Below are positions 9,572-50,895 of a stretch of DNA of 64,000 nt, in pieces. Source of the stretch: Bacillota bacterium (GTDB lineage Bacteria > Bacillota > Clostridia > Acetivibrionales > JAEXSP01); NCBI GenBank assembly GCA_023453795.1, contig JAEXSP010000017.1, positions 6,655 to 70,654 of the forward strand. The letters are read 5' to 3'. How positions within the stretch are numbered: the first letter of the stretch is position 1; every line of letters starts with the position of its first letter. The notes below the pieces were generated by a model. The model had not been told where the DNA came from. It ran no database searches and saw only the letters and a program-made list of their open reading frames with translations. The translations under genes were made by a program, and so were the position numbers.

Positions 9572-10828
9572 TTACAGTTCATCCTTTTTGATGGCTGCAT
9601 TAACGAAGGTATCGATCCCGTTCTTTTTCACCAATCTGAGTTCGCTGCTGTATACCTTGTTATCCGGATTCTGTTCAAGAATATCCAGGATCTCTATGAG
9701 CTTTGTGATGTACTCTCTGGTATTGACGGGAAGTATGGAATCTCTGGATTTCTTGAACTCAAGCAGCGACCAGTTTCTGATCCCCTCATTACTTAATTTT
9801 GGGGACCACTTAAAGGCTTTAACATGGTGTTCAATTATTTTGTCTGTCAATTCCTGTATATCTTCCAGGTTTAATCTCTTAAGCCTTATTACAGGCTTTC
9901 GTAAATTCGTAAAGGCAGCATCTGCGTTTCCGCTGCCGTTCCCGAGGCGTTGGTACAAGGCAGGGTATGTTTTTATGCCCTTTTCATCATTTTCAAAAAC
10001 CTCATTTGTACCTGCAAAAACAAACATGCATTTCCCGAATCCTCCGGACAAACTTTCATCAACTATATATCTTATATTTTCATAAGCATTTTTCCTGATA
10101 TCCGACCTGAGGTTCATCGCCAATTCAAGCTCATCGACAAGTATAATCAAACCGCTGTAACCCAGCAGACCGGTAAGACTGATAAAAGCCTTGAGAAAAT
10201 CGGTCGAGTTTTGTTTATCAATATCACCTTTTACATCAAACCGCGATTTGACATGGGCAGGGATGTTTTTTTCTCCCTTGATCCAGGATGCTGCTGCGTT
10301 TGAAAGCTCGGCATCACCGCTTATCTTTGCCTTGACATATACCAGAAAGGCGCGTGCAAAGGAGCTGTTAAAATTATTTAAAGAACCGATTACATTCCTG
10401 ATTTCTTCGGATGCCTTGTTTCTGTCCGAATATTCTTGAAGCTGGTTAACCCATATGTCGAAAATCGTTTCAAAATCCGTACCGGCAGACTCAGCAGCGT
10501 GAATGGAGAGGTTGTGCATTATATTATAATACAGCTGTTCCATATTGCTGAGGTTGAAGCCCTTGCTGATCATTATTTTAGACACAAGGAAATTTTCCTC
10601 TACAGCTGCCTGTCTGACAAGGCTGAGCATAAAGGACTTGCCGGCCCCGTACTCACCGGAAAGGAATTTGATTTCTCCGCTGCCTTCTTTTATATTCTTA
10701 AAGCAGCGCAAAAATTCTGTGAGTTCACTGCTTCTTCCTGTGCTCAGCAAGTGAAGGCTTGCATCAGGTATGACACCGTTCTTTAGAGCGTTAATAATCT
10801 TTTTTGATTGGAGGATGTCTGTTTCCAA
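9572..10828 (-). CDS. P-loop ATPase resembling the DUF2791/BrxD family
   Basis: The N-terminus IINALKNGVIPDASLHLLSTGRSSELTEFL...FLSGEYGAGKSFML follows my recollection of the BrxD/DUF2791 pattern (helical N-terminus, then G-x-G-x-GKS). A Walker-B-like LIILVDELE follows. TTG start at 10828 with a GAGGT RBS. Confidence 0.55.
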   Translation of the reverse strand: METDILQSKKIINALKNGVIPDASLHLLSTGRSSELTEFLRCFKNIKEGSGEIKFLSGEYGAGKSFMLSLVRQAAVEENFLVSKIMISKGFNLSNMEQLYYNIMHNLSIHAAESAGTDFETIFDIWVNQLQEYSDRNKASEEIRNVIGSLNNFNSSFARAFLVYVKAKISGDAELSNAAASWIKGEKNIPAHVKSRFDVKGDIDKQNSTDFLKAFISLTGLLGYSGLIILVDELELAMNLRSDIRKNAYENIRYIVDESLSGGFGKCMFVFAGTNEVFENDEKGIKTYPALYQRLGNGSGNADAAFTNLRKPVIRLKRLNLEDIQELTDKIIEHHVKAFKWSPKLSNEGIRNWSLLEFKKSRDSILPVNTREYITKLIEILDILEQNPDNKVYSSELRLVKKNGIDTFVNAAIKKDEL

Positions 10829-11192: not shown

Positions 11193-12101
11193 ATGAAAAA
11201 ACTCTTGTTTTCTATCATCATGTCTTTTATTCTGGTAAGCTTGGCACCATCTTCAGCAATTTTTGCTGAAACCACTCAAATCAAGGGCAGTGACGTTATG
11301 ATTATCGGCGATTCATATTTCGCGCTGTCCGGTGAAATTGTCAGAGCCTTAGAAAGAGAAGCTAGAAATGCTGGTGTTTTAGGTGCAAATGATAGTTTTA
11401 GAAACAACCCAGTATCTGGAGCTACACTAGCAAATAACGGCATTCCTTCTCAGTACAAAAATGGTATTAGTTCGGGTAAAGTTAAGTATGTTATAATGGA
11501 TGGCGGTGGAAACGATTGCCTGCAAGGTTATACTCCTCCACCATATAATGCAAGCACTCCTTTTATTAAAAATGCAACAGATGCAGTTACTGAACTATTG
11601 AAACAAATGAAAGCTGATGGAGTTGTAAAAGTATTTTATTTGTTCTATCCTAATCCAAATGGGGATCTCAACGGTTTAAAGGGAAAATTGGATGCATTAA
11701 GACCGATAATGCAATCTACAGTAGCTAACGCAGCAGTAAAGCCAGAAACATATTTCTTTGATATAAGACCAACATGGGACGGACATTTATCAGAGTATAC
11801 ACTACCAGATGGTATACATCCTACTACAGCCGGAAGTGTAGCAACAGCACAAGCTATGTGGGCTGAAATGCAAAAGGTTAACTTTTTCGGTACTACTCCT
11901 ACAATAAAATATGGAGATTATAACAATGATGGAGGTGTTGATGCCTTGGATTTCGCCTCTTTTAAGACGTATTTGATGAATCCTCAGCGTACATACACTG
12001 AAGTTTTGGATCTTAATTGTGATAGTACCGTAGATGCAATCGACTTTGCTATCATGAAACAGTACCTGCTGCATATCGTAAATAGTTTGCCTTACAAATA
12101 G
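11193..12101 (+). CDS. Secreted SGNH/GDSL-family esterase with a C-terminal type-I dockerin (cellulosomal carbohydrate esterase candidate)
   Basis: Signal peptide [29 protein letters not shown] blocks are IIGDSYF, GGGND and the DGIHP region. A duplicated Ca-binding dockerin repeat is visible: [21 protein letters not shown] and [21 protein letters not shown]. Confidence 0.85.
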
Positions 12102-12268: not shown

Positions 12269-14539
12269 CTATTTACTTGTTAATTGAACAGTTATATTCT
12301 CAATCTGATCAGCTTTATCAAGCTCTAGAGTATATGATTTTGAGGCTCCTGAAGACACCAATGCATCAGTGCTTTTGGTCACTACCAGGCTCTTATTAAT
12401 ATCATACGCATTTACTGTAATTCCTAAGGTCTGTAGTTTCTGACTACCATTTTCTATAGCGCCTGTAACTATTACTTTGCCATTTTCGGTTCTATAACCG
12501 CTTGAAAGTAAAAGTATACCGGATGCCTTCCCGGTGGCTTGTACAATTACATGGTCTATTTGGTTAGCTGCGTCAAGCTGCATAGTATATGATTTCGAGG
12601 CTCTTGAATTCACCATTGAGTCTGTGCATTTAGTTTCCACAGGTTTACCGTTTTTGTCGTACCCAGTAGCCACTATTCCTGCAAATTGCAATGTATTAGA
12701 ACCATTTTCTACAGCACCTGTAACTATTACTTTGCCATTTTCGGTTCTATAACCGCTTGAAAGTAAAAGTATATCGGATGTCTTCCCAGTGGCTTGCACA
12801 ATTACATGATCTATTTGGTTAGCTGCGTCAAGATGCAAAGTATATGATTTCGAGGCTCCTGAATTCACCATTGAATCAGTGCATTTAGTTTCTAAAGGCT
12901 TATCGTTTTTATCATAACCTGTTGCAGCTATTCCTGCAAATTGTAATTTACCAGTTCCATTTTCTACAGCACCTGTAACTATTACTTTGCCATTTTCGGT
13001 TCTATAACCGCTTGAAAGTAAAAGTATATCAGATGCCTTCCCAGTGGCTTGTACAATTACATGATCTATTTGGGTAGCTGCGTCAAGCTGTAAAGTATAT
13101 GATTTCGAGGCTCCTGAATTCACCAGTGAGTCAGTGCATTTAGTTTCTAAAGGCTTATCGTTTTTATCATAACCAGTAGCTGCTATTCCCACATATTGTA
13201 ATTTACCAGTACCATTTTCTATAGCACCTGTAACCACAACCTTACCATTTTGGGTTATGTAGCTGCTTGATAACAATTGTATTGTTTCAGATTTCCCAGA
13301 AGCTTTAACAACAACATATTTTATGTTTTTTACATTATTAAGTTGTAAAGTATATGTTTTTGATGCTCCTGAATTCACCATCGAATCAGTGCTTTTTGTT
13401 TCTATTGGTTTATTCTTTTTATCGTAACCAGTAGCTGCTATTCCTACAGATTGCAGCTTGTTAGTACCGTTTTCTACCGAACCGGTAACTATTACTTTCC
13501 CGTTTTCGGTCCTATAACCGCTTGAAAGTAAAAGTATATCAGATGCCTTCCCTGTAGCTTGTACAATTACATGATCTATTTGGTTAGCCGCATCAAGCTG
13601 CAAAGCATATGATTTCGTGGCTCCCGAATTCACCATTGAATCAGTGCACTTAGTTTCTAAAGGCTTATTGTTTTTATCATAACCTGTTGCTGTTATTCCT
13701 ACATATTGTAATTTATTAGTGCCATTTTCTATAGCACCTGTAACTAGTACTTTGCCGTTTTCAATTCTATAACCACTTGATAATAATTTTATGTCTGTTT
13801 CACTGCCTGTTGATTTCACTTCAACATGATCAATTCTTGTTCCGGAATCAAGTATAAGCTGTTTCTCTGCAACCTCGCCGGTATTAAGAAACGAATCTAT
13901 GCATTTTGTTTCGATGGGTTTATTGTTTTTATCATATCCTGTTGCAACAATTCCAACATAATTCATTTTTTTTTCTAAATTAATTACTTCCGCATCGACA
14001 ATAACTTTTCCGTCTTTCCTTTTCCAACAGTTTTCTCTTAACAAACTGATGCCGTTAGCTGTAGAAAACCTCTTTATTTCCACATAATCAATCTCTTTAG
14101 ATTTATCAACATTAATTTTAAAAGATTTTTCCTGACAGCTCTTAATATAATTAAAGACAAAATCCGTATCGGTAGATGCGCCGAATTTATAGTGCACTTC
14201 TACAGCAAATATTGAGCTATCAGAATTATTATTTACTAAAGTTCCTGCGATAGATGTTACGTCATTAATTTTACTTATAGCAACACCTTTAACGAATTTT
14301 TTTAATGTATCACCCGGATTTTTACCATCAAGGATATCTGCAGCTAATTCAACTTCATAACCATTAGGCAGTTCCATAATATCTGTTAATCCAGTTGGAG
14401 AATTGTCCAGCACTTTTGCTATACTTCTGATTCCTTCAATATAATCCTTACTAGTATCCTTTGCATAAGCATTCATTGATAATAGTGATAAATTAGCAAT
14501 TAAACAAAATATTGCTATAATAGATATTATCTTTTTCAT
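12269..14539 (-). CDS. Secreted protein with seven tandem 85-aa domains (possibly FxLYD-like beta-sandwich modules)
   Basis: I prefer the ATG at 14539 (GGAG RBS; MKKIISIIAIFCLIANLSLLSMNAYA signal peptide) over the track start at 14572. Seven units of the type LLSSGYRTENGKVIVTGAVENGTGKLQFAGIAATGYDKNDKPLETKCTDSMVNSGASKSYTL.LDAANQIDHVIVQATGK. Confidence 0.8.
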   Translation of the reverse strand: MKKIISIIAIFCLIANLSLLSMNAYAKDTSKDYIEGIRSIAKVLDNSPTGLTDIMELPNGYEVELAADILDGKNPGDTLKKFVKGVAISKINDVTSIAGTLVNNNSDSSIFAVEVHYKFGASTDTDFVFNYIKSCQEKSFKINVDKSKEIDYVEIKRFSTANGISLLRENCWKRKDGKVIVDAEVINLEKKMNYVGIVATGYDKNNKPIETKCIDSFLNTGEVAEKQLILDSGTRIDHVEVKSTGSETDIKLLSSGYRIENGKVLVTGAIENGTNKLQYVGITATGYDKNNKPLETKCTDSMVNSGATKSYALQLDAANQIDHVIVQATGKASDILLLSSGYRTENGKVIVTGSVENGTNKLQSVGIAATGYDKKNKPIETKSTDSMVNSGASKTYTLQLNNVKNIKYVVVKASGKSETIQLLSSSYITQNGKVVVTGAIENGTGKLQYVGIAATGYDKNDKPLETKCTDSLVNSGASKSYTLQLDAATQIDHVIVQATGKASDILLLSSGYRTENGKVIVTGAVENGTGKLQFAGIAATGYDKNDKPLETKCTDSMVNSGASKSYTLHLDAANQIDHVIVQATGKTSDILLLSSGYRTENGKVIVTGAVENGSNTLQFAGIVATGYDKNGKPVETKCTDSMVNSRASKSYTMQLDAANQIDHVIVQATGKASGILLLSSGYRTENGKVIVTGAIENGSQKLQTLGITVNAYDINKSLVVTKSTDALVSSGASKSYTLELDKADQIENITVQLTSK
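12272..14056 (-). repeat. Intragenic tandem repeat, 7 x 255 nt
   Basis: TCTATAACCGCTTGAAAGTAAAAGTATA recurs at 12491, 12746 and 13001, and as CCTATAACCG... at 13511 (spacings 255, 255 and 510). A 74-nt run is identical between 12702..12775 and 12957..13030. Confidence 0.95.
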
Positions 14540-14777
14540 TTTCGTACTCCAGTCATTAATAATTTTTTTCATATAGATTCAATAGGAGTCTTGCTCATTA
14601 TTATACGGTCCGTATTAATAGACTACAGTATACATAACCATTTATCAATACAATCTTACTTAATTATGATAATTAGTAAAAAGCAGCAATATATGCACTC
14701 AAGGAATAAGAAATGCCCGTCACGGTTTCTGTCAAAAGCCTGTAACCAAAGAAAATCAAGCCCCTCCAAACCTTCGC

Positions 14778-15680
14778 TTATCTATAAAACACCATCGTGA
14801 AATAACTTGTCGTCTCCTTCGGGTTGATTTTGATGATCCTTGCGGAATTGCTGTGGGCGAGGAGTTTTGATTTGTCTGCTCCTTCGGCGGTCATTGCGGA
14901 TAAAAATGAAATAAGAGTAGGGGGGGAGTCAAGGTTATCGTTGCCCATCCCGTCGATTTCCTTCAGGTTTCTGTCGTTAATTGCCTTAAGAGTCACCTCA
15001 TCCATTTTGTCGGCCTTGTCAAGAGTCAGATAGTGCGAAAAGTCTATGGATGCAATAACTATATATTTCTTACCCTTCAGTTTGTTTTGAATTGCCTCTC
15101 CCAGCCTGCGGGAATCATCAAGGCTATTGTTGCCGTTGAGAAGGAGTGGCAGGATTCGGGCATTCGGCATGTAGTACTTGATATATGGAACAAGACCTGA
15201 GATTGAATGGTCTTCCTGCATCAGAGCGGAGTTGGAGCCTGAGATGCCCCCATTCACAAGAGACTCCGCATCTTCCGCGGCTGCTTTAAGTATTCCGAAG
15301 GGAGTTTGCCAGTCAAGGCTGGAGGTCTGAACATAATTGACACCCAAACCCTTATGATTGGGGGCCAAAACTACAACAACCTCAGGATCGGCGGCAGATA
15401 CCGTTTTCATAAATGAAGAAATAAGGCTGCCTGCAAGTAAATGATGCGGTGTTATACCTCCGCAGACGGAAGCACCGGGAAGAGGAGTCCCGGATGCTTC
15501 TGTAACGGATTTTCTAAAATCCTTTTCATTATAAAAATTGCATTTAAGGTATTCAACGCGTTTATAGGCTTCACCCGAAGCTTTGTTGTCTTTCACTTCA
15601 GGCTTGCTGTTTAAGTATAGTATCACAGACAGACAGGCTGCAAAAAGTATTGCGGCGGTTAAAAGCAATTTCCTTTTCAT
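14778..15680 (-). CDS. Memo-like (AmmeMemoRadiSam system protein B / class III extradiol dioxygenase-fold) protein with an N-terminal signal or anchor
   Basis: Family-like blocks are GGITPHHLLAG, VVVVLAPNHKG, DWQTPFG, QEDHSISGLVPY and IASIDFSHY. The N-terminus MKRKLLLTAAILFAACLSVILYL is hydrophobic. The start lies 11 nt after the upstream stop. Confidence 0.65.
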   Translation of the reverse strand: MKRKLLLTAAILFAACLSVILYLNSKPEVKDNKASGEAYKRVEYLKCNFYNEKDFRKSVTEASGTPLPGASVCGGITPHHLLAGSLISSFMKTVSAADPEVVVVLAPNHKGLGVNYVQTSSLDWQTPFGILKAAAEDAESLVNGGISGSNSALMQEDHSISGLVPYIKYYMPNARILPLLLNGNNSLDDSRRLGEAIQNKLKGKKYIVIASIDFSHYLTLDKADKMDEVTLKAINDRNLKEIDGMGNDNLDSPPTLISFLSAMTAEGADKSKLLAHSNSARIIKINPKETTSYFTMVFYR

Positions 15681-15691
15681 AGTAACCCCTT

Positions 15692-18600
15692 TTATTTTAT
15701 TATTTCTATCTGCTTCCGGGCCGCAAAGCCTGATGCATCGCTTTCCACGTCTTTAATTACTGCATAATCCGCAGTAAATTTACCCGGTGATACCGCTCTT
15801 GCGTAGTAAACAACATCCTTCAAAGGCTCCTTGCTGTTCTTTTGGTAATTATACCAGAAGGTTACCTTTTGGCTGTTTATATCTTCAAAGTACCAGTTAT
15901 TGCCGTAGGTTTGCCTGCTGGGTACATATCTGAGGCATGACGGCAGTACATCGGTAATTTCATAAAAACCGTCAGGTGCTGTTTCGGAAAAGCTGGGGTG
16001 CAATACTATCTTAATCAGCTCAGATTGATTGAAGCTGCCGGTTTGCCTGTTATCAGAGGAGTAAGTCCTATTCAGCCTGATAACGCTGCCGGCTTTTAAT
16101 AAGTCTGTTATTGGACCGGTAAAGCTTGATGTTACTTCAATATTGCCGGATATATCGGTTAAACCTATATTTTTAAGCTTTTCAGGAGTAAGCGTTACCT
16201 GGAAGGTTTCACTCTTATTCAATTTAACAACCTTTTTAACACCCTCAAGATTCAATGTAAATTTGCTTGATTTGGAGGCATCGGGAGCAGAAGCAGTAAC
16301 AAAAATCATTTTTTCCAGGTTAACAAGTATGTCCTTTGTCGAATTTTTAGTTACATAAGCAAAGAGTCCGTTTTTCTCGGGGGCATTTATTTTCATGGCT
16401 AAGACGGAAAGCAGAGCGGTTGAATCAATAACATCATCCCTGTCCTTTCCTGAATCCAGATAAATATACGGATCAACATGCTTCAAACCGGAGGCGATTT
16501 TTGAGTAAACGCTTTCCGCACCGGAGGAATCTCCTATTTCAGCCAGAGCTATACCCAGATAAATTCTTTCCTTGCTTCCTATTCCCTTGGATTCAAGCAA
16601 ATCCTTGATTTCAAGCAGAACGGGCTCATTAAGTGATGCCAGACCCCAATAGGCTGCGGCAACATTTTCAGGAGAGGCTTCGGTATTGTTTATAATGCTG
16701 TAAAAATACTGTTTAGCAGCCGATTCGTCAATAGAGTCCTTGGCAAGAGAGCATACTTTTGCCGACAATACAGGATCACTGCTGTCATATGAAAGTAATG
16801 CGATTCCGCCGTCACTGCACTGATATGCCTGCAGGTTGAATTCTTCACTGCTGTCATACCAGGAGGCATAATCAGGGTAATATTTCTTCATAAGCTCAAG
16901 CGAAAGCTTGCGGGAAAGCTTCTGGTCAACCCTGTCGCCCCATTGCCACATGAGATCCCACAGGGTATTGAGATACATTGAGGAAGCTTTATTATAGAAG
17001 GTAAGGGTTGTAAGTGATGAGCCTCCCTCAGGCTTAAGGCCTTCTTTAAGTGTATACTGCCTGGTTCTGGATGTTTCAAGTATATTGTTTACAACCTTAA
17101 AATCCTTTTTGATTGCGTCCTTGTACTTGCCTTTGACAGCACTTACAGTAACGGAATATTTTCCTTCGCTCAGTTTGCCCAGGGTGGTGTTTGCATATCC
17201 GTTCCCCAAGCCTTTTTCGGTAAATGTCTTTTTGTAGCCGTTCTGGCCCGTAACAGTAACGGTATAATCAACAGAATCATTTTTATCAACTGCCGTTCCA
17301 AAAGATCTGGCTGTGATTGAGGGGCTGTCACCAACCATAAATACATTGTTGAATATGACATCAATAAAGAAGGGAAGCTTGGAGGTTACGTTGACAGTTC
17401 CGTTCCCGGCATGGAGATCGTCGGTTACGCCCTGATATGTTATTCTCCATGAAGTCAGGTTATCCGGAAGCGTGAAGCTTATTTCACCCTTTCCGTCGCT
17501 TCCTGTTTGGACAGTGCCGAAATAGCCGTTATCCTTGAACATATATCTAACCGATTCGTCTCCGCCTTCTCCCATCTCGGCGGCATTATTGCCGTTTAAG
17601 TCCAGCTGTCGGAAGGATACATAATCCGAAATTATTCCGGTATAGAAGCTGCTTCTGTACAAGGATTCCAGTGTATCCACACTCTGATCCTGTATAGCAA
17701 AGAACGCTTCATCAACCACGCTGAGATTTACCTCTGCTTTGCATGGCTTCCCGGAGGAGTCTGTTACGCTTATATCAAGCTTTACCTTTTCACCGGGCTT
17801 ATACTCTTTTTTGTCCGGCTCAACCTTGATATTGAGCTTTTCTTTTTCATAATCGTACAGGATTTCCTTGCAGCCTGCATTAAAGATGTTTTTCCCGTCA
17901 AAGTAAACACCCTGTACATACATGTTCGGAATATACGAGGAATCAAAGTCAAAGGAATATTTCGTATTGCCCGTAACCGTATAGTCAAGGAGCCCGTTTG
18001 AAAGACGGAGGTACAAAGAACGTGCATTTGAGCTTTCGGGCACGGCCTGGCCGTTGCAATTGATATCTAGAGATACTGCGTCTCCTGTTTTAAATCTGCT
18101 TTTATTGTTTGTACTCTCAACGGTGTAATATTTGAAGCCCGAGGTATAAGAATTGGGGTCATACCCTGAATAACCGTCAAGGTAAGTATCCTCAACTATT
18201 GTATTATTGTGTGAATCGGTTCCCTTGATTGAGATCCTATAGTTTTTATTTTTATCTGCATCAATATTGAAATCAAAGGAATACTTGCCGCTCTCCGTTC
18301 TAAAATCAAATTCTTTAACTATTTTTTCTTCTTTTGTGTATTGATAAAGCTTGTGAACGGTCTTGTCTATAAAATCGTAATATTTACCGTTCTCCTTAGC
18401 TGTCCAATATTCTTCATAAATAGTGGCATGAAGCTGTTTATCGACAGTGCCGCCCCTGTATGCATCAGTTGAATACCATAAATCATCCTCAAGTGTCTTT
18501 TTATTAAAGGAAACAGAATGGGTCTGAACGTCAACCAGGCCTTTTGCACCCTTTTTAGCAGTTTTTGTTTCTATCATGAAGTCGCTCGGGAAAACCACCA

Positions 18601-20620
18601 CTTCTCCGCCGACTGAGATTGTTTCTTCCTCAGCTTCTGCATTGCTTATACTATAATCCATATAATACGGACGGAAGGTGTTGACAGAGCGGTCAGGGCG
18701 GAGTGTCAATTGAGCAGAGCCGTTCGGATCGCACTTCAGTTTGCCCTCATTATTCGAACTTGCTTTGTAATAGTAATTAAGCTTAAGTCCTGCTACCGGA
18801 GAGCCCTCAAAAAAGCTGGCCTGAACAGCCAAATCCGTACTCTCCCATGAAAACATAGGGTTCTTGTCGGGAACAGCAGTCAGCTTGTAGGCAGGCTTTG
18901 TATACTGCCTTACTTCAAAGTAATTACTTGAAACGATGCTGTCGCCTAGCTTTAGTTGGATATAATATGAACCCTGACTGAGATTGGATATGTCCATTCT
19001 GCTGTTATAAGTTCCGTGGGAGGATAATTTAACCTCTTTTGAGGAAATCATACTCAATCGGTCATTGTCGCTGGAACCGTTATATGCTGACGGATAAAGC
19101 TCCAATGTAGCTTTTGACGGAACATCCGAGCCGTCTCTGGGTTTAGCGATTCCCCAAAGGTTAACTGTATCCGTGGGAAGATAGAGCCCCCTGTCGAGGT
19201 ACATGTATGACCAGTATTTACACTCGGGTTTATCATTATCATCGGTATATTGGTAATATGCCAGCGGTGCTATAAATGCAGGCTTGTTTTCCCTGAAGGC
19301 TTTGAAATAGTAGTTTGCTCCTTGTTCGGGTTCGGGAATCTTACCCTTTATTACTGCGACTCCATCCTTCCCGGTTTCAGCCGTACCGAGGCCCTCTGCT
19401 TCTATTGAAACACCCTTGACCGGCTTGCCTGTAACGGAATCGTTTATCCATGCCAGACTGTTTTTTTCTCCGGCCATAAAATAGCAGACATTGTCGCTTA
19501 CCTGCATTAAAGCCTGTTTTACCTTATCCTCACAGGTGACATTGACCAGATAATGTCCTTCGGAAAGCTTTGAGGGAAAACGTAGAATATATGTATTCCA
19601 GTACTCATTATTCATGTCAAAAAGAGTTGTCTTGAATGAGGAGACCGAAGTAAGGCTGCCTGATTCAAACCTTCTTGTGCCATTATCCGTATGAGCCCAG
19701 TAGGGAAGAGTATCATATTTTTTGAGATCAGACATAAACTCTTTGTCACTGGGATATTTATAGATTTCCACATTGAATTCCTTATTCTTGAAATATTCAT
19801 CCCCATACAACTGCAGCTCAGGCAGTGTATCGGTAGTGAAATTGTTTATGGAATCCCCATCAATATTAAAATACTTTTTTTCATTTAAATTATCGGACTG
19901 GTTGAGGACAGTCTGGAATTTGAACGTATAATCCTCCTGAATTTTATCATCGCTGCCTTCGAGGCCGATGCCCTTTTTGACTGTAACTGTATATACCGTG
20001 TTTTCAGCCAGCTTTTCCGGTACAAAAACAACGGTTTTTTTGTGGTATTCAAACCTTCCTTCGGTTTTAGGGGAAATCTCAAAATAGTTGTCGATTTTCT
20101 CCATGTTGTCATCGCTGAAGGTGATTTCTATGCCCGAGTTCAAGGGAACATCCGTGCTTATGTTTCTCGGAAGTGTTCTTTCGATTCTGAAGACTTTCTT
20201 TGTCTGAAATGCCCAGGAGCGTTTAGTGTCGTCTTTATTACCCATTGAAATTTTGTATATGCTGTCAGGTTTCAGGTCGTCTTTAAAATTAAGCCGGTAT
20301 TCTGTAGAGGACAGCTTTTTAAGCTTGTATTCCTGTGACGGTGAAACCTTCAGGACAGCTTTGAGTGCTGACTCGGAAATGTTCTGCTTCGATGTGATTT
20401 TAAATCCGGATTTTATATCCACACCTGTTTTGCCGTAGGACAGAGGAATTACATTTATCTTGTGATAGTTGATGCCGGATATATCGGCATCAGTGGGGGC
20501 CGATTCTGAGGAAAATATTAATGGTATAAGAACTGCAGCAGCTACGACAAGGATTAATAACGAGGCTGAAATTATTGATAATTTAATCCTATGCTTTTTA
20601 ATAAAATCTTTGACATGCAT
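15692..20620 (-). CDS. Alpha-2-macroglobulin family protein, 1642 aa, with an N-terminal TM anchor
   Basis: MG-domain motif YLDRGLYLPTDTVNLWGI, A2M-like VNLSVVDEAFFAIQDQ and LPDNLTSWRITYQGVTDD. One N-terminal helix (LSIISASLLILVVAAAVLIPLIF). No CxEQ thioester motif is visible in the translation. Confidence 0.85.
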   Translation of the reverse strand: MHVKDFIKKHRIKLSIISASLLILVVAAAVLIPLIFSSESAPTDADISGINYHKINVIPLSYGKTGVDIKSGFKITSKQNISESALKAVLKVSPSQEYKLKKLSSTEYRLNFKDDLKPDSIYKISMGNKDDTKRSWAFQTKKVFRIERTLPRNISTDVPLNSGIEITFSDDNMEKIDNYFEISPKTEGRFEYHKKTVVFVPEKLAENTVYTVTVKKGIGLEGSDDKIQEDYTFKFQTVLNQSDNLNEKKYFNIDGDSINNFTTDTLPELQLYGDEYFKNKEFNVEIYKYPSDKEFMSDLKKYDTLPYWAHTDNGTRRFESGSLTSVSSFKTTLFDMNNEYWNTYILRFPSKLSEGHYLVNVTCEDKVKQALMQVSDNVCYFMAGEKNSLAWINDSVTGKPVKGVSIEAEGLGTAETGKDGVAVIKGKIPEPEQGANYYFKAFRENKPAFIAPLAYYQYTDDNDKPECKYWSYMYLDRGLYLPTDTVNLWGIAKPRDGSDVPSKATLELYPSAYNGSSDNDRLSMISSKEVKLSSHGTYNSRMDISNLSQGSYYIQLKLGDSIVSSNYFEVRQYTKPAYKLTAVPDKNPMFSWESTDLAVQASFFEGSPVAGLKLNYYYKASSNNEGKLKCDPNGSAQLTLRPDRSVNTFRPYYMDYSISNAEAEEETISVGGEVVVFPSDFMIETKTAKKGAKGLVDVQTHSVSFNKKTLEDDLWYSTDAYRGGTVDKQLHATIYEEYWTAKENGKYYDFIDKTVHKLYQYTKEEKIVKEFDFRTESGKYSFDFNIDADKNKNYRISIKGTDSHNNTIVEDTYLDGYSGYDPNSYTSGFKYYTVESTNNKSRFKTGDAVSLDINCNGQAVPESSNARSLYLRLSNGLLDYTVTGNTKYSFDFDSSYIPNMYVQGVYFDGKNIFNAGCKEILYDYEKEKLNIKVEPDKKEYKPGEKVKLDISVTDSSGKPCKAEVNLSVVDEAFFAIQDQSVDTLESLYRSSFYTGIISDYVSFRQLDLNGNNAAEMGEGGDESVRYMFKDNGYFGTVQTGSDGKGEISFTLPDNLTSWRITYQGVTDDLHAGNGTVNVTSKLPFFIDVIFNNVFMVGDSPSITARSFGTAVDKNDSVDYTVTVTGQNGYKKTFTEKGLGNGYANTTLGKLSEGKYSVTVSAVKGKYKDAIKKDFKVVNNILETSRTRQYTLKEGLKPEGGSSLTTLTFYNKASSMYLNTLWDLMWQWGDRVDQKLSRKLSLELMKKYYPDYASWYDSSEEFNLQAYQCSDGGIALLSYDSSDPVLSAKVCSLAKDSIDESAAKQYFYSIINNTEASPENVAAAYWGLASLNEPVLLEIKDLLESKGIGSKERIYLGIALAEIGDSSGAESVYSKIASGLKHVDPYIYLDSGKDRDDVIDSTALLSVLAMKINAPEKNGLFAYVTKNSTKDILVNLEKMIFVTASAPDASKSSKFTLNLEGVKKVVKLNKSETFQVTLTPEKLKNIGLTDISGNIEVTSSFTGPITDLLKAGSVIRLNRTYSSDNRQTGSFNQSELIKIVLHPSFSETAPDGFYEITDVLPSCLRYVPSRQTYGNNWYFEDINSQKVTFWYNYQKNSKEPLKDVVYYARAVSPGKFTADYAVIKDVESDASGFAARKQIEIIK

Positions 20621-20903
20621 AAGCTTGCTTCCCTCCTGATATTATAATCAATTATTCAACTTTCCCGCAGAATTAATTACTGCAGTCACTAATTTAACCT
20701 CGGACTGCTTCGTTAAAATGGAAAGTTGTGTAAATTATAAAATTATACACCTTAATTATATATAAATCTTTATGTTTGTAATTTACAATCTAGTTAATAT
20801 TAGTTACGAAAAAGTTAAAAAACTTTAAAAGGGGCGAAAAATCATGCACGGCTAAAATAAAAGGAGAATGCAGCTGAAATTTGGTTGTAAATCTGCTATA
20901 AAG

Positions 20904-22346
20904 TTAAAACTGAAAATATATGAAAGAATTTGCCGTAAATACGCCCAGTATTATAATAGTTATTATAGCAGCGTAGTAAAGGCCCCACCTGATTACAGCA
21001 GGCTTACGGGCAAGAGTCATACTTAGACTTTGCCTTCTTTGCAGCAGTTGGACAAGGAGGAGGAAGCCTACCAGCAGCATTCCTATAAATACATCATAGC
21101 GTGTTATTCCAACCCAGCTGAAGGTGGACTTGAGCCTGAAGTCTGTAAAAATACGTTTTACAACAGTGAAAGCATCATTGATTGAAGCAGCCCTGAAGAA
21201 TATCCATGAGAAGCAGATAAGGTTGAAGGTGACAAACACTTTAAAGGCTTTCCCGATGGCAGGGACCTTGTCCAGCCTGAAAAAGTGAAATACCTTTGAT
21301 TTTGGCTTCTTAAGAATGATTGCTGCTACCAGGTATAAACCGTTAAGCGAACCCCATATAACGTACGTCCAATTCGCACCGTGCCATAGGCCGCTTAAGA
21401 GAAATACAATCAGCAGATTCCTGTACCATTTCCATTTGGCGCACCTGCTGCCGCCAAGAGGAATGAAAACATAATCCTTGAACCAGCTTGACAGTGATAT
21501 ATGCCAGCGTTTCCAGAATTCCGATATTGATTTGGAGAAATAAGGCCTTTTGAAGTTCTCCATAAGCTCAAAGCCCATTATTCTGGCTGCGCCTCTGGCA
21601 ATATCGGTATATCCGGAGAAGTCGCAGTAGATCTGGAAGGCAAAGAAGTAGGTTGCTACAAGGAGTGTAAGTCCTGAATTGGCTGAAGGATATTTATATA
21701 CTGCATTTACAATAATAGCAAGGTTGTCTGCAATTACAATTTTCTTAAAGAATCCCCAAAGCATCAGCTTTAATCCGTCAATGATCCTGACAGAATCAAA
21801 ATAGTGCTTTTCATGGAATTGATGCAGCAGATTCTGAGGCCTTTCAATAGGTCCGGCAACAAGCTGCGGATAGAACATGACAAAAAGAGCGTATATTCCG
21901 AAATTCCTTTCGGGCTTTTGATTGCCCCGGTATACCTCTATAATATAGCTCATGCTCTGGAAGGTATGGAAGGACAGCCCTATAGGAAGCAGTATGGACA
22001 GGCTTTGAATAGGGTAATTCCAATGAAGCATATTTGCAAGGTTTGTGAGGTTTTCGTTGAAAAAGTTAAAATACTTGAAAACAAACAGAAACCCGACATT
22101 GGAGACGATGCTTATAATGAGGAACAGCTTCTTGTTTCTTCCTTCCATCCTGCATAGAAGAATGCCAACAAAATAGTCTACAACAATGGTAACTGCAAGA
22201 ATGAGAATATAAATCGGAACAAAAGCCATATAGAATATGCAGCTTGCTGTTAACAGCATAAACCAGCGCAATTTATGAGGCAGTGCAAAATACAGAATTG
22301 TCACTATCGGAAAAAACAGCATAAAACTGATTGAATTAAAAAGCAT
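20904..22346 (-). CDS. MBOAT-family membrane O-acyltransferase (AlgI/DltB/PatA-like)
   Basis: MLFNSISFMLFFPIV N-terminus, the catalytic-His region FWKRWHISLSSWFKDYVFIPLGG, and LWHGANW. Polytopic membrane protein. Confidence 0.9.
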   Translation of the reverse strand: MLFNSISFMLFFPIVTILYFALPHKLRWFMLLTASCIFYMAFVPIYILILAVTIVVDYFVGILLCRMEGRNKKLFLIISIVSNVGFLFVFKYFNFFNENLTNLANMLHWNYPIQSLSILLPIGLSFHTFQSMSYIIEVYRGNQKPERNFGIYALFVMFYPQLVAGPIERPQNLLHQFHEKHYFDSVRIIDGLKLMLWGFFKKIVIADNLAIIVNAVYKYPSANSGLTLLVATYFFAFQIYCDFSGYTDIARGAARIMGFELMENFKRPYFSKSISEFWKRWHISLSSWFKDYVFIPLGGSRCAKWKWYRNLLIVFLLSGLWHGANWTYVIWGSLNGLYLVAAIILKKPKSKVFHFFRLDKVPAIGKAFKVFVTFNLICFSWIFFRAASINDAFTVVKRIFTDFRLKSTFSWVGITRYDVFIGMLLVGFLLLVQLLQRRQSLSMTLARKPAVIRWGLYYAAIITIIILGVFTANSFIYFQF

Positions 22347-22359
22347 AAATAGTTCTCCT

Positions 22360-23406
22360 TTAGGAATTTATCCGTTTCCATAAATCTTCGGCCAAAAATC
22401 TGTAGCCGTCCTGAATCAGATGGACATGATCCGAAAACAGGTTATAGCCGATCTTTTTATTGTAGTTGATGTACTTCACACCTTTATTAGTGAAGAAACC
22501 GTCTATTTTTTTCATATTGTCAACATAGCCCGGTACCGAGGTTGCAGACCCTAGAAGCTTGTCATTCATCGCAGTAAGGAAAAACAAGGTGTTCTTTCCC
22601 TTTTGTAATTCCATTATCTTTTTAAAGAAATAAACCTGAAAATTGGAATCATCCATTACAAACGGTGAACTCGCATAATACCATAGATTTTCAGGCTTCT
22701 TCATTATAGCGGGAAGATCCTTTTTAGTGTACCAGGGGGCAACGACTGCCTTATTCTCCCTTAAAACGGAATTCCCCTTTCTCTTGAAGGCCAGATTGAT
22801 GAACTGGCTGTATTTGACTATTGAAACATCAGTATATAAAAATCTCTTAATTTCAGTTTTGATGCTTCCCCAAGTGTCGTAAGCCTTCATCTTGCCGCTG
22901 TCAGCAACCTTTTTGTAGTCCTTGGGGTCAACCTTTTTAAAATTGTTTTTTAGCCAGAAGACAGGATTCTTCGCGTAAAATTCCCAGTAAGGCAGGTCTA
23001 TGATAAGGTTTTGGGTGGATATGCCGTTATCGTTCAAAAGCTTGATGACAATATAGATGTCACCGGCCATCATGGAAGGTGCGGCGAGGTTAAAAACCCT
23101 TACAGCCTTTCCTTCCCTTTTGGCAATAGCGTTCATATAGCTGGTGATTGTACTTTCCGGCGGGCAGGGGGTGCCGTAGCCGACGGAATCTCCAAGAAGG
23201 ATTATGTAATCTTTAAGCTGCTCCTTGCGGATTGTTTTTTTGATCTCCTGAATTGTTATGTTTATTACAAATTCATTATCCTTGAATGCGTCATAATTAA
23301 TTCTCTGGTTATATACCACTCTCGAAGGTATGATATATGGAAGCGTGAATTGAGTCAGAATAAAAAATATTAAAATAAATAGAGCCAGCTTCTTAATTAG
23401 AGACAT
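22360..23406 (-). CDS. SGNH-like extracytoplasmic partner of the MBOAT (AlgJ/PatB/DltD-type role)
   Basis: N-terminal anchor, a GDS-type block ILLGDSVGYG and a C-terminal SDHVHLIQDGY (DxxH block). Its stop is 13 nt before the MBOAT start. Confidence 0.65.
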   Translation of the reverse strand: MSLIKKLALFILIFFILTQFTLPYIIPSRVVYNQRINYDAFKDNEFVINITIQEIKKTIRKEQLKDYIILLGDSVGYGTPCPPESTITSYMNAIAKREGKAVRVFNLAAPSMMAGDIYIVIKLLNDNGISTQNLIIDLPYWEFYAKNPVFWLKNNFKKVDPKDYKKVADSGKMKAYDTWGSIKTEIKRFLYTDVSIVKYSQFINLAFKRKGNSVLRENKAVVAPWYTKKDLPAIMKKPENLWYYASSPFVMDDSNFQVYFFKKIMELQKGKNTLFFLTAMNDKLLGSATSVPGYVDNMKKIDGFFTNKGVKYINYNKKIGYNLFSDHVHLIQDGYRFLAEDLWKRINS

Positions 23407-23502
23407 CTTTTTCCACCTTTTAAAAAGTAAATAGTTTACACAGTAGATTATAACAAAAAAATCAGATAGGTAAAATCAAAAATGTAAACATTTTAGCTTA
23501 AG

Positions 23503-23540
23503 AAAAACCATTACCACTGAATAGGACTCAGAGGTAATGG
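23503..23540 (-). terminator. Rho-independent terminator after the transglutaminase-domain gene
   Basis: Stem CCATTACC (23508..23515) / GGTAATGG (23533..23540). On the minus strand it is followed by TTTTT (23507..23503). Confidence 0.7.
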
Positions 23541-23565
23541 TTGATTGAACTGTTCTTAGCGATAG

Positions 23566-26226
23566 CTATTTGTTGATCGTAATCGAGAATATCACAGAAA
23601 CTTCTTCCGTAGACGGATTTCCACCCATGTAGAGCTGATAATTTACATTGTTTTTCTTGTAGTTGGCTTCCAGCTGAGAGTACCCTTTCATCATCTGAGT
23701 GAAAAGCGTTTTCACATTCCAGGAATCCAGTTTTGTAGATCCCTTGCCACTGGTATAAACATTCGGTGCCGTCAGCTTGTCCGCTTTCAGCAGCTCCTTC
23801 AGATAACCGTTAAGTTTGTTGTAGAGTTTAATATAATTGTCCTGTGTTACTTGTATACGGTTCAGTGATATTGAATAATAAAGTCTTTTGGCATCCGAGT
23901 GCTGATTGTAGGACCGGTAAACCTGAACGCCGGATTTTAAATATTCTACATAATAAATTGTCCCATTGCTGTCTACTTCTGTCGGATCGGAGGTCTCTAA
24001 AGCTTTTGCATTGGCTGTAGATTTCACGCTTTCAAGTTTTTTATCCCCGACGTGGTATTTGGCCAAAGCTGTCTTAATTTCAGATATTTGTGAATCATTT
24101 AATTCAACATTGAGATTCTCGGATTGAACCGGTGTCTGCAGCACGCCGTCAGGCAGCTTGACAGTGATAGAGTCCAGAGGGCATGCAGCCAGACTCATGC
24201 GTTGATAGCTGTCTACAAGGTTGTATTGTCCATCCATATACTTTTCTATGTTGTTGCCAATGAGTTCCAATGTGTACCAGCACTCTCCCTGCGGCGGCAA
24301 AGGAGGCTTGATGGTTACTGTCGCTTCTGTCATTCCCGGAGTAATCTCCAATTGAACCCCATCTGAACCGTAGGAAGAAAAGCCTTTTCCCTGCGGAGTC
24401 ATCGTACTGACCCTGATGTACAATGATTGATTCATCTTGGCAGGCTGCGGGAACAGGACTTTTATTTTGCTTGCGGCGGTTTTCTCCGGTTTGACAATCA
24501 CCGTATAGTCATTGCCGTTTTGTTGAACCTCTAAAGTATATTTGTCATCTGTTTTGTAATTGTATATGTCGGCAAGCTGAAATCCGATATGATCCTGTAA
24601 CTCACTGCTGTATTGCTTTTCCGGAATCAGCATAAACGAAGACTCGCTGGAACCCTTTCCTAAAAATAGTGTCCTGCTCATACTTATTCCGCTATTCTCC
24701 ATGCTCATGAGGATGTAAATGTCCTCCTTGGCTGTACCCGATTCAAATTTTATTTTACCGGTAACAGGGGTATATCCTTGGGCTGCAGAGTCATTTATCA
24801 GTTTATCGTCATAATTGGTGCTGCATGGGGGATAAAAGGTCTTTCGCCAGATATGGTCCGTCTGCATCTGCTTGTCCGATAGCAGAAGATAATCATACAT
24901 ATTTCGATTTGTTTCTTCGTCGTTTATTGTTGCGTCATTCCAGGTTACATCCAAATGATAATACTTTCCGTCGACTTTAACAATATTCCACGCGTGCCTG
25001 TTTTCCTTATAGTTCCCCAATTCATACTCATCAATGTCTTTAAAGCCGTCAACACCCGCAAATCCCACAACGAATTTTGCCTCAACCCCCATCTTGTTCA
25101 GAAGATTTGCTGTTGCGCAGGCATATCCCTGGCATATGCCCTTTCCCTTTAGTAGTACATCATATAATCCTTCAGAACTCCGAACATAGGTTGTATTCTC
25201 AATTATATACCTGTTTACGGCCAAAACCTTATCATAATCGCTCATACCTGGTTTCAGCAGCTTGGCAGCAATCTGGTTGGCTGTATCGTCCACGTCCTTG
25301 GGTAATTTCTCATTGTTGAATTCATTGTAATATTTCAGTGTTGTTTTATCAGAACTGATGATATCGCCATTTTCGTCGTAGAAGTCTGTTTTCCCCTTTA
25401 ACCGGATCAACATCTGCATATTTCCGTAGAATTTAACATCGTAGGATTTGAGATTATTCAGCAATACCTTGGCCGGTACTCTGACAATGCCTTGATCCAA
25501 CCTTGCTTCCGTATCCATTTTCCGGCTGACTCCATTAATTTTTACATTATCACTTAAAAGCTTGAATTCAAACGAAGTGCCGTCAATTTTCAGTATTGCG
25601 GTATTGCTTTTGGAGTCAAAAGAATACGTGCCGTTAAAGATGTCCGCCAGAGGACGAATAGGTATAATAAGCGTATTTTTAATCAATGCAGGCAGCATAG
25701 CCGGCGATTTTCCCAAACTGCAATAGTCATTGTCCACCTCGAAGCCCCATGAATTCGAAGCTAGAGCGACTCTTTTCGGCATGTTTGCCTTTCTTATGCT
25801 GATGATTTTATCCGTAGGATTCCATAGTGCTTTTAAGCCAAACGCTTCAGCAATATAGCGCGGCTCTACATAAATCATACCGCTTTTGACTATTGTCGCA
25901 GAGTCCATCTGCTTCTTTATGCCATTCACAGCATATTCCTTTTTTCCGGCGTATAAGGTCAGGGTATTCTTGTTCCTTGTATAGGTTTCCTTCAGAGTTT
26001 TTATGTCATAGGCAGTTTTATCTACTCCAATCGCATATGCAATGCTTTGTGCAGTGGCCCATACCTTGCCTTTGGAGTCAATGAAGGGCTGTAAACCGGA
26101 TATTTCTTTCTCTGAACCGATAAATGTCACTGTGATTGGTTTACTTGCAGCGTAAACAGGTGCTATTGGTGTTGCTGCAATGAATACCATAATCAATGCT
26201 AGTATCAGTGTAAGTAATTTTTTCAT
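23566..26226 (-). CDS. Secreted protein with copper-amine-oxidase-N-like stalk domains and a transglutaminase-like cysteine protease core
   Basis: Signal peptide present. CuAO-N-like segments include MIYVEPRYIAEAFGLKALWNPTDKIISI. The transglutaminase core reads GICQGYACATANLLNKMGV...NRHAWNIVKVDGKYYHLDVTWND (Cys-His-Asp). Confidence 0.8.
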   Translation of the reverse strand: MKKLLTLILALIMVFIAATPIAPVYAASKPITVTFIGSEKEISGLQPFIDSKGKVWATAQSIAYAIGVDKTAYDIKTLKETYTRNKNTLTLYAGKKEYAVNGIKKQMDSATIVKSGMIYVEPRYIAEAFGLKALWNPTDKIISIRKANMPKRVALASNSWGFEVDNDYCSLGKSPAMLPALIKNTLIIPIRPLADIFNGTYSFDSKSNTAILKIDGTSFEFKLLSDNVKINGVSRKMDTEARLDQGIVRVPAKVLLNNLKSYDVKFYGNMQMLIRLKGKTDFYDENGDIISSDKTTLKYYNEFNNEKLPKDVDDTANQIAAKLLKPGMSDYDKVLAVNRYIIENTTYVRSSEGLYDVLLKGKGICQGYACATANLLNKMGVEAKFVVGFAGVDGFKDIDEYELGNYKENRHAWNIVKVDGKYYHLDVTWNDATINDEETNRNMYDYLLLSDKQMQTDHIWRKTFYPPCSTNYDDKLINDSAAQGYTPVTGKIKFESGTAKEDIYILMSMENSGISMSRTLFLGKGSSESSFMLIPEKQYSSELQDHIGFQLADIYNYKTDDKYTLEVQQNGNDYTVIVKPEKTAASKIKVLFPQPAKMNQSLYIRVSTMTPQGKGFSSYGSDGVQLEITPGMTEATVTIKPPLPPQGECWYTLELIGNNIEKYMDGQYNLVDSYQRMSLAACPLDSITVKLPDGVLQTPVQSENLNVELNDSQISEIKTALAKYHVGDKKLESVKSTANAKALETSDPTEVDSNGTIYYVEYLKSGVQVYRSYNQHSDAKRLYYSISLNRIQVTQDNYIKLYNKLNGYLKELLKADKLTAPNVYTSGKGSTKLDSWNVKTLFTQMMKGYSQLEANYKKNNVNYQLYMGGNPSTEEVSVIFSITINK

Positions 26227-49871: not shown

Positions 49872-50577
49872 TTACAATACCCCCAAACTTTTCATTAGTC
49901 TCTATGCTTTCGATTTTTCCGTCTATTATATGTATTATCCTATCTGCATACCTCGATATCTCAATATCATGAGTAACAATTACAAGTGTCTGTTTGTTCT
50001 TCCTTGCCATTTCAGTTATAAGGGTCATAACCTCCTTTGTGGTTTTGGAATCCAAATTTCCGGTGGGTTCATCTGCGAAAACTATGGCGGGCTTGCTGAT
50101 AAAAGCTCTCGCTATTCCCACCCTCTGCTGCTGACCGCCGCTCATTTGCGAAGGCTTGTGTCTTAAATGCTTCCCAAGTCCGACGGCAGCTAAGAGAGCT
50201 TTTGCCCTTTTATCCCTGAAACCTTTTGGAATACCCCTGAAGGTAAGAGGCAGGGATACATTTTCAAGAGCGGTCATTGCCTGCATCAGATTATATGATT
50301 GGAATACAAAACCTACGAACTTCTGCCTGAACCTTGTAAGCTTCTTTTCACTAAGATTTTCGATATTTACTCCCATTATTCTGATCTGCCCTCTGCTGGG
50401 TTTTTCTAGCCCGGCCATTAAGTTTAAAAGCGTGGACTTGCCTGAGCCGGATGTACCCAGAAAACAGCAGAATTCACCTCTAGGGATTGAGAGGTCTATG
50501 TTTTGCAATGCTATAACTCTTTCGTTTCCAATCCGATAGACCTTGCTAACATTCTTTATTTCTATTGCAGTCTCCAA
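49864..50577 (-). CDS. ABC transporter ATP-binding protein (MacB/LolD type)
   Basis: Walker A GTSGSGKST, signature MSGGQQQR and Walker B VFADEPTG. I prefer the TTG start at 50577 (RBS GGGGG, giving METAIEIKNVSKVY). The track extension to 50760 has no coding character. Confidence 0.9.
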   Translation of the reverse strand: METAIEIKNVSKVYRIGNERVIALQNIDLSIPRGEFCCFLGTSGSGKSTLLNLMAGLEKPSRGQIRIMGVNIENLSEKKLTRFRQKFVGFVFQSYNLMQAMTALENVSLPLTFRGIPKGFRDKRAKALLAAVGLGKHLRHKPSQMSGGQQQRVGIARAFISKPAIVFADEPTGNLDSKTTKEVMTLITEMARKNKQTLVIVTHDIEISRYADRIIHIIDGKIESIETNEKFGGIVNA

Positions 50578-50895
50578 ACGGATACCCCCTAATGATGTTA
50601 ATGGCAAATAATAAACCACATTATTAATTTTACCGATTACCTGATTAAAAAAGGTTACAACTTTATTAAGAATTATTAAAGGAAGGCAGTAATTATAACA
50701 GTTTATAACAAAGATTACCTGAAATATATTTGACCTGATTTTAGATTGTATACAAAACACATATTAAGGTGTTTGGAAGGGCCATAAAATGGGTTTTGAT
50801 TGAATTTTTAAATTAAACATGTGCAAAAAAAGCTATAAAATAAAGTAAGCAAATGTTAAACTAATCTGATGAGTAAATTTATATATACGGTTTTA

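Follow-up and report, generated by a model that had tools for sequence, protein, structure and literature searches.

The 64,000-nucleotide window analysed here (contig JAEXSP010000017.1 of assembly GCA_023453795.1, positions 6,655 to 70,654) is chromosomal DNA from an uncultured clostridial bacterium, and it carries two adjacent genes, one encoding a thioester-less protein of the alpha-2-macroglobulin (A2M) family and the other a smaller protein with the Memo/LigB fold. Scans made from both genes show that the two are inherited together across distant lineages and that their pairing is not due to chance. We propose that they form a third, monoderm-type bacterial A2M system, a surface protease guard with a metal-dependent Memo partner, and we consider the chances of this reading to be about even. 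The finding itself is real and non-random, and it is undescribed in the sources we searched: no paper was found with "macroglobulin" plus "AmmeMemoRadiSam" or "Memo-like", and a search with macroglobulin, thioester and Firmicutes found none on this A2M family. The pair is laid out as follows (positions are those of the window):

15692..20620, minus strand: A2M gene, encoding a 1642-aa membrane-anchored, thioester-less family protein (open reading frame (ORF), Pfam, AlphaFold2 (AF2) model and Foldseek)
14778..15680, minus strand: Memo/LigB-fold gene, encoding a 300-aa membrane-anchored protein (Pfam Memo, TIGR04336, AF2 model)
15681..15691, minus strand: intergenic spacer of 11 nt, AAGGGGTTACT, with a Shine-Dalgarno site (read from the sequence)

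The first-pass annotation, made from the letters of the window, had placed the Memo-like gene 11 nt 3' of the A2M gene. Coordinates and spacer were correct, both ORFs lie on the minus strand, and every peptide block that it quoted was found in the translations. The junction reads TAA-AAGGGGTTACT-ATG with the Shine-Dalgarno site inside the 11 nt, so the A2M and Memo genes are almost certainly co-translated. In homologous A2M-Memo pairs the stop and start codons overlap by 1-4 nt.

For the Memo-side scan, the Memo alignment was run against one genome per species; relatives were found in 460 species and 80 loci were kept, four of which were excluded for too little upstream DNA. In tblastn with the window A2M, 75 of the 76 testable loci had a same-strand A2M gene upstream of Memo, and the one true exception (L060) has a truncated Memo-like gene. 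In the A2M-side scan of metagenomes with the A2M alignment, Memo was directly downstream in 54 of 64 testable loci. The first three look-ups had A2M followed by Memo in unrelated contexts, and four further ones, made with distant A2Ms or Memo fusions, gave the same picture. Neighbour clustering revealed only A2M and Memo as common to all loci, with different genes on the flanks. A conserved neighbourhood in Clostridia had been named by the annotation as a point to check; it was found, and its range is wider than that class. The hosts are mostly Clostridia (Pseudobacteroides cellulosolvens, Petroclostridium, Oscillospiraceae, Hungateiclostridiaceae, Sedimentibacter, Anaerovorax, Brassicibacter and Peptococcaceae), together with metagenome-assembled genomes (MAGs) of "Bacillales", of a Dehalococcoidia bacterium and of Ca. 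Blackburnbacteria in the candidate phyla radiation (CPR). A profile search of 1.84 billion representatives gave about 1430 Memo-type clusters (50% identity) at E <=1e-30. Genes identical to the window pair were also present on ENA metagenome contigs of 96-115 kb, and no plasmid matched the locus in megablast. Two larger groupings were tried and rejected. The block of CCA enzyme, A2M-Memo-EPSP-synthase family and HtrA-DUF218-SH3 is the synteny of one clade (28 loci), and a tie to an iron regulon, suggested by flavodoxin and ferritin genes nearby (L001, L018), was not recurrent.

The domains of the A2M protein were located by Pfam, by an AF2 model covering aa 443-1642 (29 homologues used), and by a hydropathy scan:

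20513..20581, minus strand: signal-anchor, aa ~14-36, after a K/R-rich cytoplasmic stub of ~13 aa (hydropathy scan)
19910..20191, minus strand: Big_5 Ig-like domain, aa 144-237 (Pfam, 3.8e-08)
17696..18112, minus strand: bait-region domain A2M_BRD, aa 837-975 (Pfam PF07703, 1.8e-15)
17309..17515, minus strand: A2M (MG7) domain, aa 1036-1104, which includes LPDNLTSWR (Pfam PF00207, 2.9e-08)
16292..16990, minus strand: helical domain like the thioester domain (TED), aa ~1211-1443, without a Pfam TED match (twelve helices in AF2; TED-start alignment with ECAM and the CPR homologue; Q..(D/N)GG)
16922..16933, minus strand: degenerate thioester site R1230-V-D-Q1233 at the CxEQ position (alignment; Arg conservation)

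Besides the Pfam domains in this list there was an MG2 match at aa 472-570, and no NCBIfam model matched the protein. The AF2 model had a predicted local distance difference test (pLDDT) value of 83 and a pTM of 0.74. Its best PDB matches in Foldseek were the E. coli A2M known as ECAM (5a42, E 3.8e-48), the Salmonella A2M (Sa-A2M, 4u48) and trypsin-activated ECAM (4ziq, TM score 0.60), followed by complement C3/C4/C5, TEP1, CD109 and human A2M; E-values across ECAM, Sa-A2M, C3, TEP1, CD109 and human A2M ran from 1e-48 to 1e-31. The TM score of 0.60 to activated ECAM, against 0.34, is perhaps a modelling preference and is not used for interpretation. Profiles and folds were needed for these assignments, as phmmer of either protein against PDB sequences gave weak TEP1 matches or none. 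After the bait loop the model has a CUB-like beta domain, the twelve-helix TED-like domain and C-terminal beta domains. As modelled, the protein has the complete A2M body of macroglobulin (MG), bait-region, bait-loop, CUB-like, TED-like and C-terminal MG parts; Pfam, AF2 and Foldseek all agree with the domain set of the A2M superfamily, whose hallmarks had been pointed out in the first-pass annotation. The best-conserved N-terminal stretch of the family is aa 151-225 (block entropy 1.3-1.5 vs ~2.1 elsewhere).

The signal-anchor at aa ~14-36 is the sole transmembrane-like segment of the A2M protein, as the annotation had stated. A hydrophobic N-terminal segment is present in 114 of the 118 homologues, and K/R residues precede this position in all 118. 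Since this sole segment is N-terminal and follows a K/R-rich start, the A2M body is predicted to face outward, and an outward topology is predicted from sequence for the Memo-like protein as well.

No CxEQ motif was found in the 1642-aa protein or in 120 homologues. There is no invariant Cys in aa 443-1642, and no Cys anywhere in the protein is more than 63% conserved. The TED begins with QWGDRVDQ in the window A2M, YPYGCLEQ in ECAM and YPYGCVEQ in the CPR homologue, and relatives carry SRLEQ or SRVEQ at the thioester position. The correspondence of RxD/EQ with CxEQ was assigned by inspection, as MAFFT offsets the strings by two columns, and no Cys stands there either way. Arg at the thioester Cys position is at least 95% conserved, and GxR[VILFM][DE][QSR] occurs in 100 of 109 family ORFs. 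The TED motif Q..(D/N)GG, downstream of the thioester site, is common to the window A2M and ECAM. Read in this way, the thioester Cys has been replaced by a conserved Arg (RxDQ), and the absence of a thioester proposed by the annotation stands.

In the CPR pair from Ca. Blackburnbacteria (L079:1755-10852), the A2M has a canonical GCVEQ with a Pfam TED_complement match and a Hint domain in the bait; the Memo gene lies directly 3' of this A2M, and a CapA-like gene lies ~2 kb upstream. Because this thioester-bearing A2M is still Memo-linked, the Memo linkage pre-dates the thioester loss or is independent of it. We also considered Memo as a compensation for the lost thioester and rejected it: the CPR pair combines GCVEQ with Memo, and Memo-less relatives are also RxDQ.

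The 300-aa protein was recognised as Memo-like in the annotation, and it matched both Pfam Memo (PF01875; 1e-26, 94.2 bits vs a gathering threshold of 27) and TIGR04336, the AmmeMemoRadiSam-B profile (1.1e-29, 103.6 bits vs a cut-off of 26). Its Pfam LigB match sits at the cut-off (26.3). The AF2 model (pLDDT 92.8) has the MEMO1 fold, with TM 0.70 to the MEMO1 structures 7kq8 and 3bcz, and its globular domain superposes less well on aminophenol, DOPA and gallate dioxygenases. The hydrophobic N-terminus reported earlier is also present:

15609..15677, minus strand: N-terminal anchor helix of the Memo-like protein, aa 2-24, then a disordered linker to aa ~43 (AF2, hydropathy)

Of 118 homologues of this putatively exported protein, 114 likewise carry a hydrophobic stretch at the N-terminus, and a lipobox-like motif was seen in about 25, e.g. 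LLVAC followed by SSSG.

In the profile alignment to MEMO1, PNH corresponds to PSH (His81), EDHS to DEHS (His131) and DFSHY to DFCHW (Asp189, His192). A second alignment, with what we take to be the MEMO1 sequence, pairs His79 with MEMO1 His49 and Asp251 with Cys244. His79, His109, Asp213, Ser215, His216 and Asp251 were invariant in 135 of 135 partners from the loci studied. MEMO1 binds Fe or Cu through His49, His81 and Cys244, which correspond to His12, His61 and Glu242 of LigB, and glutathione was bound beside the metal site in its crystal structure (PMC11081632). The window partner is like MEMO1 in fold and in keeping the equivalents of His49, His81, His131, Asp189 and His192. However, MEMO1 is cytosolic and has Cys244 as third metal ligand, while the window partner is anchored, is predicted to face outward, and has an invariant Asp at that position as in extradiol dioxygenases. 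As read from these alignments, the partner would have a full 2-His-1-carboxylate site plus His216 and be closer to true extradiol dioxygenases than MEMO1 is.

The annotation had also remarked that the usual companions of Memo proteins were missing. AMMECR1 and radical SAM domains were not found in the 28 largest ORFs covered by the scan of the window (28 of the 37 with 180 aa or more), nor within +/-10 kb or among the conserved neighbours of the 80 loci, so that no AmmeMemoRadiSam gene cluster was found over this range. A radical SAM gene in L002 is of SPASM type, lies on the opposite strand and is not conserved. NCBI names the homologues of the small protein "AmmeMemoRadiSam system protein B", and NCBIfam has only the generic TIGR04336 for them. 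This name is a misannotation of an anchored Memo subfamily: the TIGR04336 cut-off is passed, but the three-gene context is lacking and the protein is N-terminally anchored. We also considered and rejected a disulfide between the two proteins through Memo Cys47, as Cys47 is ~71% conserved and the A2M has no Cys above the 63% given earlier.

The published types of bacterial A2M are two, both studied in Gram-negatives, and a monoderm family extends this picture. ECAM is a lipoprotein of diderm bacteria. Type I A2Ms have CXEQ and lie next to pbpC, and type II A2Ms (MagD/YfaS) have no thioester, belong to a six-gene operon and are described as ubiquitous in Gram-negatives (PMC5764988). Like the type I proteins ECAM and Sa-A2M, which are its best structural matches, the window A2M has an N-terminal tether and faces outward as predicted, and the layout of a two-gene operon with one enzyme partner is also similar (yfhM-pbpC, read in E. 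coli). Unlike it, ECAM has CLEQ at residue 1187 and traps covalently, and its partner is a peptidoglycan glycosyltransferase. No penicillin-binding protein or transglycosylase neighbours were found here or in related loci, so neither thioester nor pbpC is present.

Type II is nearer in other respects. MagD/YfaS and the window A2M are both large, cytoplasmic-membrane-associated proteins with a bait region retained, no CxEQ and operon-encoded partners, and the window A2M is slightly nearer to E. coli yfaS (tblastn 1e-18) than to YfhM (blastp 4e-09). But MagD/YfaS is Gram-negative and periplasmic, with DUF2138, DUF1175, DUF2300 and DUF2135 partners, and none of these domains was found in the window neighbours or in conserved neighbour clusters, which means that the type II operon is absent. 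MagD is held at the membrane via MagB and has no Big_5 noted, while the window A2M has its own anchor and a Big_5 domain, and its one universal partner is of the Memo fold. The annotation had called the pair an unexplained two-gene module, and pbpC, yfa/mag, AMMECR1 and radical SAM partners were all not found. Its reading withstood all the refuting conditions that it had listed.

These comparisons bear on the simplest alternative, that an ordinary YfaS/MagD-type A2M lies by chance beside a cytosolic AmmeMemoRadiSam protein B. The database names point this way, since NCBI uses that name for the small protein and JGI names some A2Ms "YfaS", and so do the TIGR04336 score and the better E-value to yfaS. 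Against it, the adjacency is conserved in both directions, AMMECR1 and radical SAM are missing as described, the small protein has an N-terminal anchor or lipobox-like motif and Asp in place of Cys244, yfaA/T/Q/P-type DUF partners are lacking, and the hosts are monoderm. The alternative is already contradicted by these data and we regard it as very improbable.

The bait loop lies at the position expected for a bait and is disordered in the AF2 model:

17555..17629, minus strand: flexible bait loop, aa 998-1022 (pLDDT <50 at model residues 556-580; column entropies)
17558..17581, minus strand: acidic Gly-rich motif AEMGEGGD, aa 1014-1021, family consensus AEGGEGGD (column conservation)

Within the loop, aa 1004-1013 are variable and the remainder is the conserved motif, with A at 92%, G1017 at 99%, E1018 at 89% and G1019 at 97% in 111 sequences. 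Of 95 distinct A2Ms linked to Memo, 87 carried the pattern E-x-GG-[ED]-G, and none of 8 relatives lacking Memo did (Fisher p = 5e-8, a value that ignores shared ancestry). From its conservation, part of the loop looks like a site of specific recognition, perhaps by the Memo cleft. The glutathione in the MEMO1 structure means that the cleft of MEMO1 can hold a small acidic ligand.

In the mechanism that we propose for the surface guard, a translationally coupled two-gene operon would provide two products, both predicted to be N-terminally tethered to the outer face of the cytoplasmic membrane. By analogy with thioester-less MagD, an incoming protease would cleave the exposed A2M loop and cause a conformational change, and the changed A2M would trap or block the protease non-covalently at the membrane surface. 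MagD is the precedent for trapping without a thioester: it traps TEV non-covalently, needs MagB for stability and is processed in vivo in a partner-dependent manner (PMC5764988). The Memo-like protein would be an obligate metal-dependent partner in one complex with the A2M. It might be a latch or a processing factor that engages the half of the bait loop with the acidic AEGGEGGD motif, and the correlation of motif and Memo favours this. Or it might act on an envelope polymer beside the trap, in place of the diderm PBP1c or MagC, and the recurrent CapA-like and beta-helix fusions described below favour such an envelope role. For the maturation or redox role that the annotation had suggested for the partner, these fusions and the conserved loop motif are new leads. 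A further reading, which we put forward only tentatively, is that a thioester-less monoderm A2M is read or processed at its acidic loop by a Memo-fold metalloenzyme, and that the same scaffold has been rewired in relatives as an anti-sigma sensor, a dockerin inhibitor and a Hint-bearing bait.

Several points weigh against the guard. The correlation of motif and Memo rests on ~5 independent Memo-less lineages (judged from their differing architectures); it has exceptions (L118, L139, L140), and may in part reflect common descent. Broad-spectrum A2Ms have hypervariable baits, but the loop here is short and one half of it is conserved, which fits specific processing or signalling no less well than promiscuous trapping. 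Oxygenase chemistry at the 2-His-1-carboxylate site is unlikely because most of the hosts are strict anaerobes, and no hydrolase is known from the Memo family.

In P0229, P0232, P0238, P0240 and L079:4889-9985 (aa ~831-961) the bait loop is interrupted by a Hint/BIL (intein-like) domain, always at one position, that of the conserved motif, and these Hint-bearing A2Ms span thioester-less Clostridia-type proteins and the thioester-bearing CPR protein. At the junctions, AE(G/M)GG is followed by CF and VHN is followed by (Q/E)KG. With Q or E at +1 in place of C, S or T, the Hint domain is not expected to splice canonically, and it may self-cleave the bait.

Some relatives have the A2M in a signalling context. 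In L123:3720-9633, L148:3851-9672 and L150:3320-9209 an extracytoplasmic function (ECF) sigma gene overlaps the start of a Memo-less A2M; the A2M begins with a cytoplasmic anti-sigma domain of the zf-HC2 type, and a transmembrane segment comes next at ~aa 85-105. L127:3732-10574 has a sigma-A2M-Memo three-gene operon. Such anti-sigma::A2M fusions suggest that an A2M can serve as a protease sensor that signals across the membrane. In L167:3049-9756 and L168 a BlaR1-type M56 gene precedes an A2M with a type I dockerin (7e-16) at its C-terminal end, which would be a cellulosome-borne macroglobulin. Envelope-stress-type neighbours were also found, LiaF-like in L137 and both PspC and LiaF-like in L002 and L003. 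The sigma, BlaR1, LiaF and PspC contexts tie the A2M scaffold to envelope surveillance.

These contexts support a different view of the pair, in which the A2M serves chiefly to sense proteases or to scaffold signalling and the Memo-like enzyme is an effector or processing factor on the AEGGEGGD loop, likened to the programmed chain processing of C3/C4. The three sigma-linked fusions and the three-gene operon agree with it, as does the near-invariant half of the bait loop that tracks Memo presence. A Hint/BIL domain without the usual +1 nucleophile, exactly at the loop in distant lineages, suggests programmed cleavage, and the in vivo processing of MagD depends on partners (PMC5764988). However, with ~13 cytoplasmic residues the window A2M has no signalling domain, and the Memo-like protein likewise has none. 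No peptidase activity is known for the Memo/LigB fold, and the zf-HC2 fusions are mostly without Memo. We therefore treat this sensor role as possible but doubtful for the window pair.

The Memo slot itself is also variable. Memo fused with PGA_cap (CapA-like) makes up at least 18 clusters at the 90% identity level, and five more representatives, each from its own 50%-identity cluster, carry the fusion too; it retains the slot after the A2M gene (L087:217-13142, L091:4932-11953, P0241-P0258, P0401, P0412, P0443, P0474, P0498). L087 has two tandem A2M paralogues ahead of the fusion. In the Dehalococcoidia and CPR loci PGA_cap is encoded by a neighbouring gene of its own, and in L164 a PGA_cap-like match comes after Memo. 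CapA/PgsA, the founding PGA_cap member (PF09587), is an extracytoplasmic, N-terminally anchored protein of metallophosphatase fold that faces outward, so the fusions are consistent with an external location of Memo. A ~245-aa beta-helix protein lies between or after the pair in ~9 loci and is fused to Memo in P0374, and a calcineurin-like phosphoesterase takes the Memo slot in L165. In one clade an EPSP-synthase-family (MurA/AroA) gene is downstream of the pair. No PgsB or PgsC was seen among the neighbours, and none of the PGA_cap, beta-helix and phosphoesterase partners is in the present window.

It can be argued from these partners that the pair is a unit for assembly or remodelling of an envelope polymer (capsule or secondary cell-wall polymer), with the A2M as scaffold or shield and no protease inhibition. 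The repeated fusion or adjacency of Memo with CapA-like PGA_cap, including Dehalococcoidia and CPR, the fused or adjacent right-handed beta-helix proteins, the phosphoesterase of L165 and the EPSP-synthase-family gene all favour it. But the full trap architecture of bait loop, CUB and TED-like domain is retained under selection, the CapA-like and beta-helix partners occur in a minority of loci, and the MurA/HtrA synteny is found in one clade only. We consider a polymer unit of this kind unlikely, and keep the surface protease guard as our preferred reading.

A 2026 review describes bacterial A2Ms as mainly found in mutualistic or pathogenic Gram-negatives and possibly derived from metazoan hosts. 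This view of host acquisition is weakened by a large family in free-living anaerobic monoderms, with its ~1430 clusters and relatives in 460 species. If the tentative reading of a Memo enzyme acting at the acidic loop is right, the A2M would be the first defined macromolecular partner or substrate for the Memo family, and bacterial A2Ms would be general protease-triggered switches and not traps alone. The obligate operon partner allows direct testing in a bacterial system. A membrane or cellulosome-borne protease guard could aid the survival of cellulolytic Clostridia in protease-rich digesters.

The window also encodes an SLH protein, PFOR, Rho and an Ech-type hydrogenase. A GDSL lipase/esterase (window 11193-12101, plus strand) has a C-terminal type I dockerin, which confirms a cellulosome-producing host and agrees with the dockerin noted at first. 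A weak promoter-like site lies 5' of the A2M gene:

20755..20782, minus strand: promoter-like site ATTACA-16-TATAAT (10/12 consensus matches only)

Further 5' on the same strand (window 20904-26226, minus strand) are an MBOAT/DltB-like O-acyltransferase of 480 aa, a 348-aa protein without a family match, and an 886-aa transglutaminase-core protein with Cu_amine_oxidN1 repeats, which look like a lineage-specific envelope-modification set. Directly 3' of the Memo gene (window 12269-14572, minus strand) is a 767-aa protein with a signal-like N-terminal segment; it consists of ~5.7 tandem copies of a 255-bp (85-aa) unit with 80% identity and has weak FxLYD-domain similarity. These three 5' genes and the repeat protein were rejected as members of the module, as they are not conserved beside A2M-Memo elsewhere.

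A lone BrxD/SngB-like ATPase is encoded at window 9572-10828 (minus strand; Pfam BrxC_BrxD 6e-92, PADLOC SngB 1e-66 and BrxD 1e-60), with no other BREX or defence genes among the neighbours scanned. An anti-phage defence role for the A2M-Memo pair was rejected, as neither protein has a PADLOC match. At window 47457-49871 (minus strand) an 804-aa CARDB/NPCBM_assoc protein lies between genes for a MacB/FtsX-type permease and an ABC ATPase (46124-47473 and 49864-50760), and the three would make up a trio of surface protein and ABC exporter.

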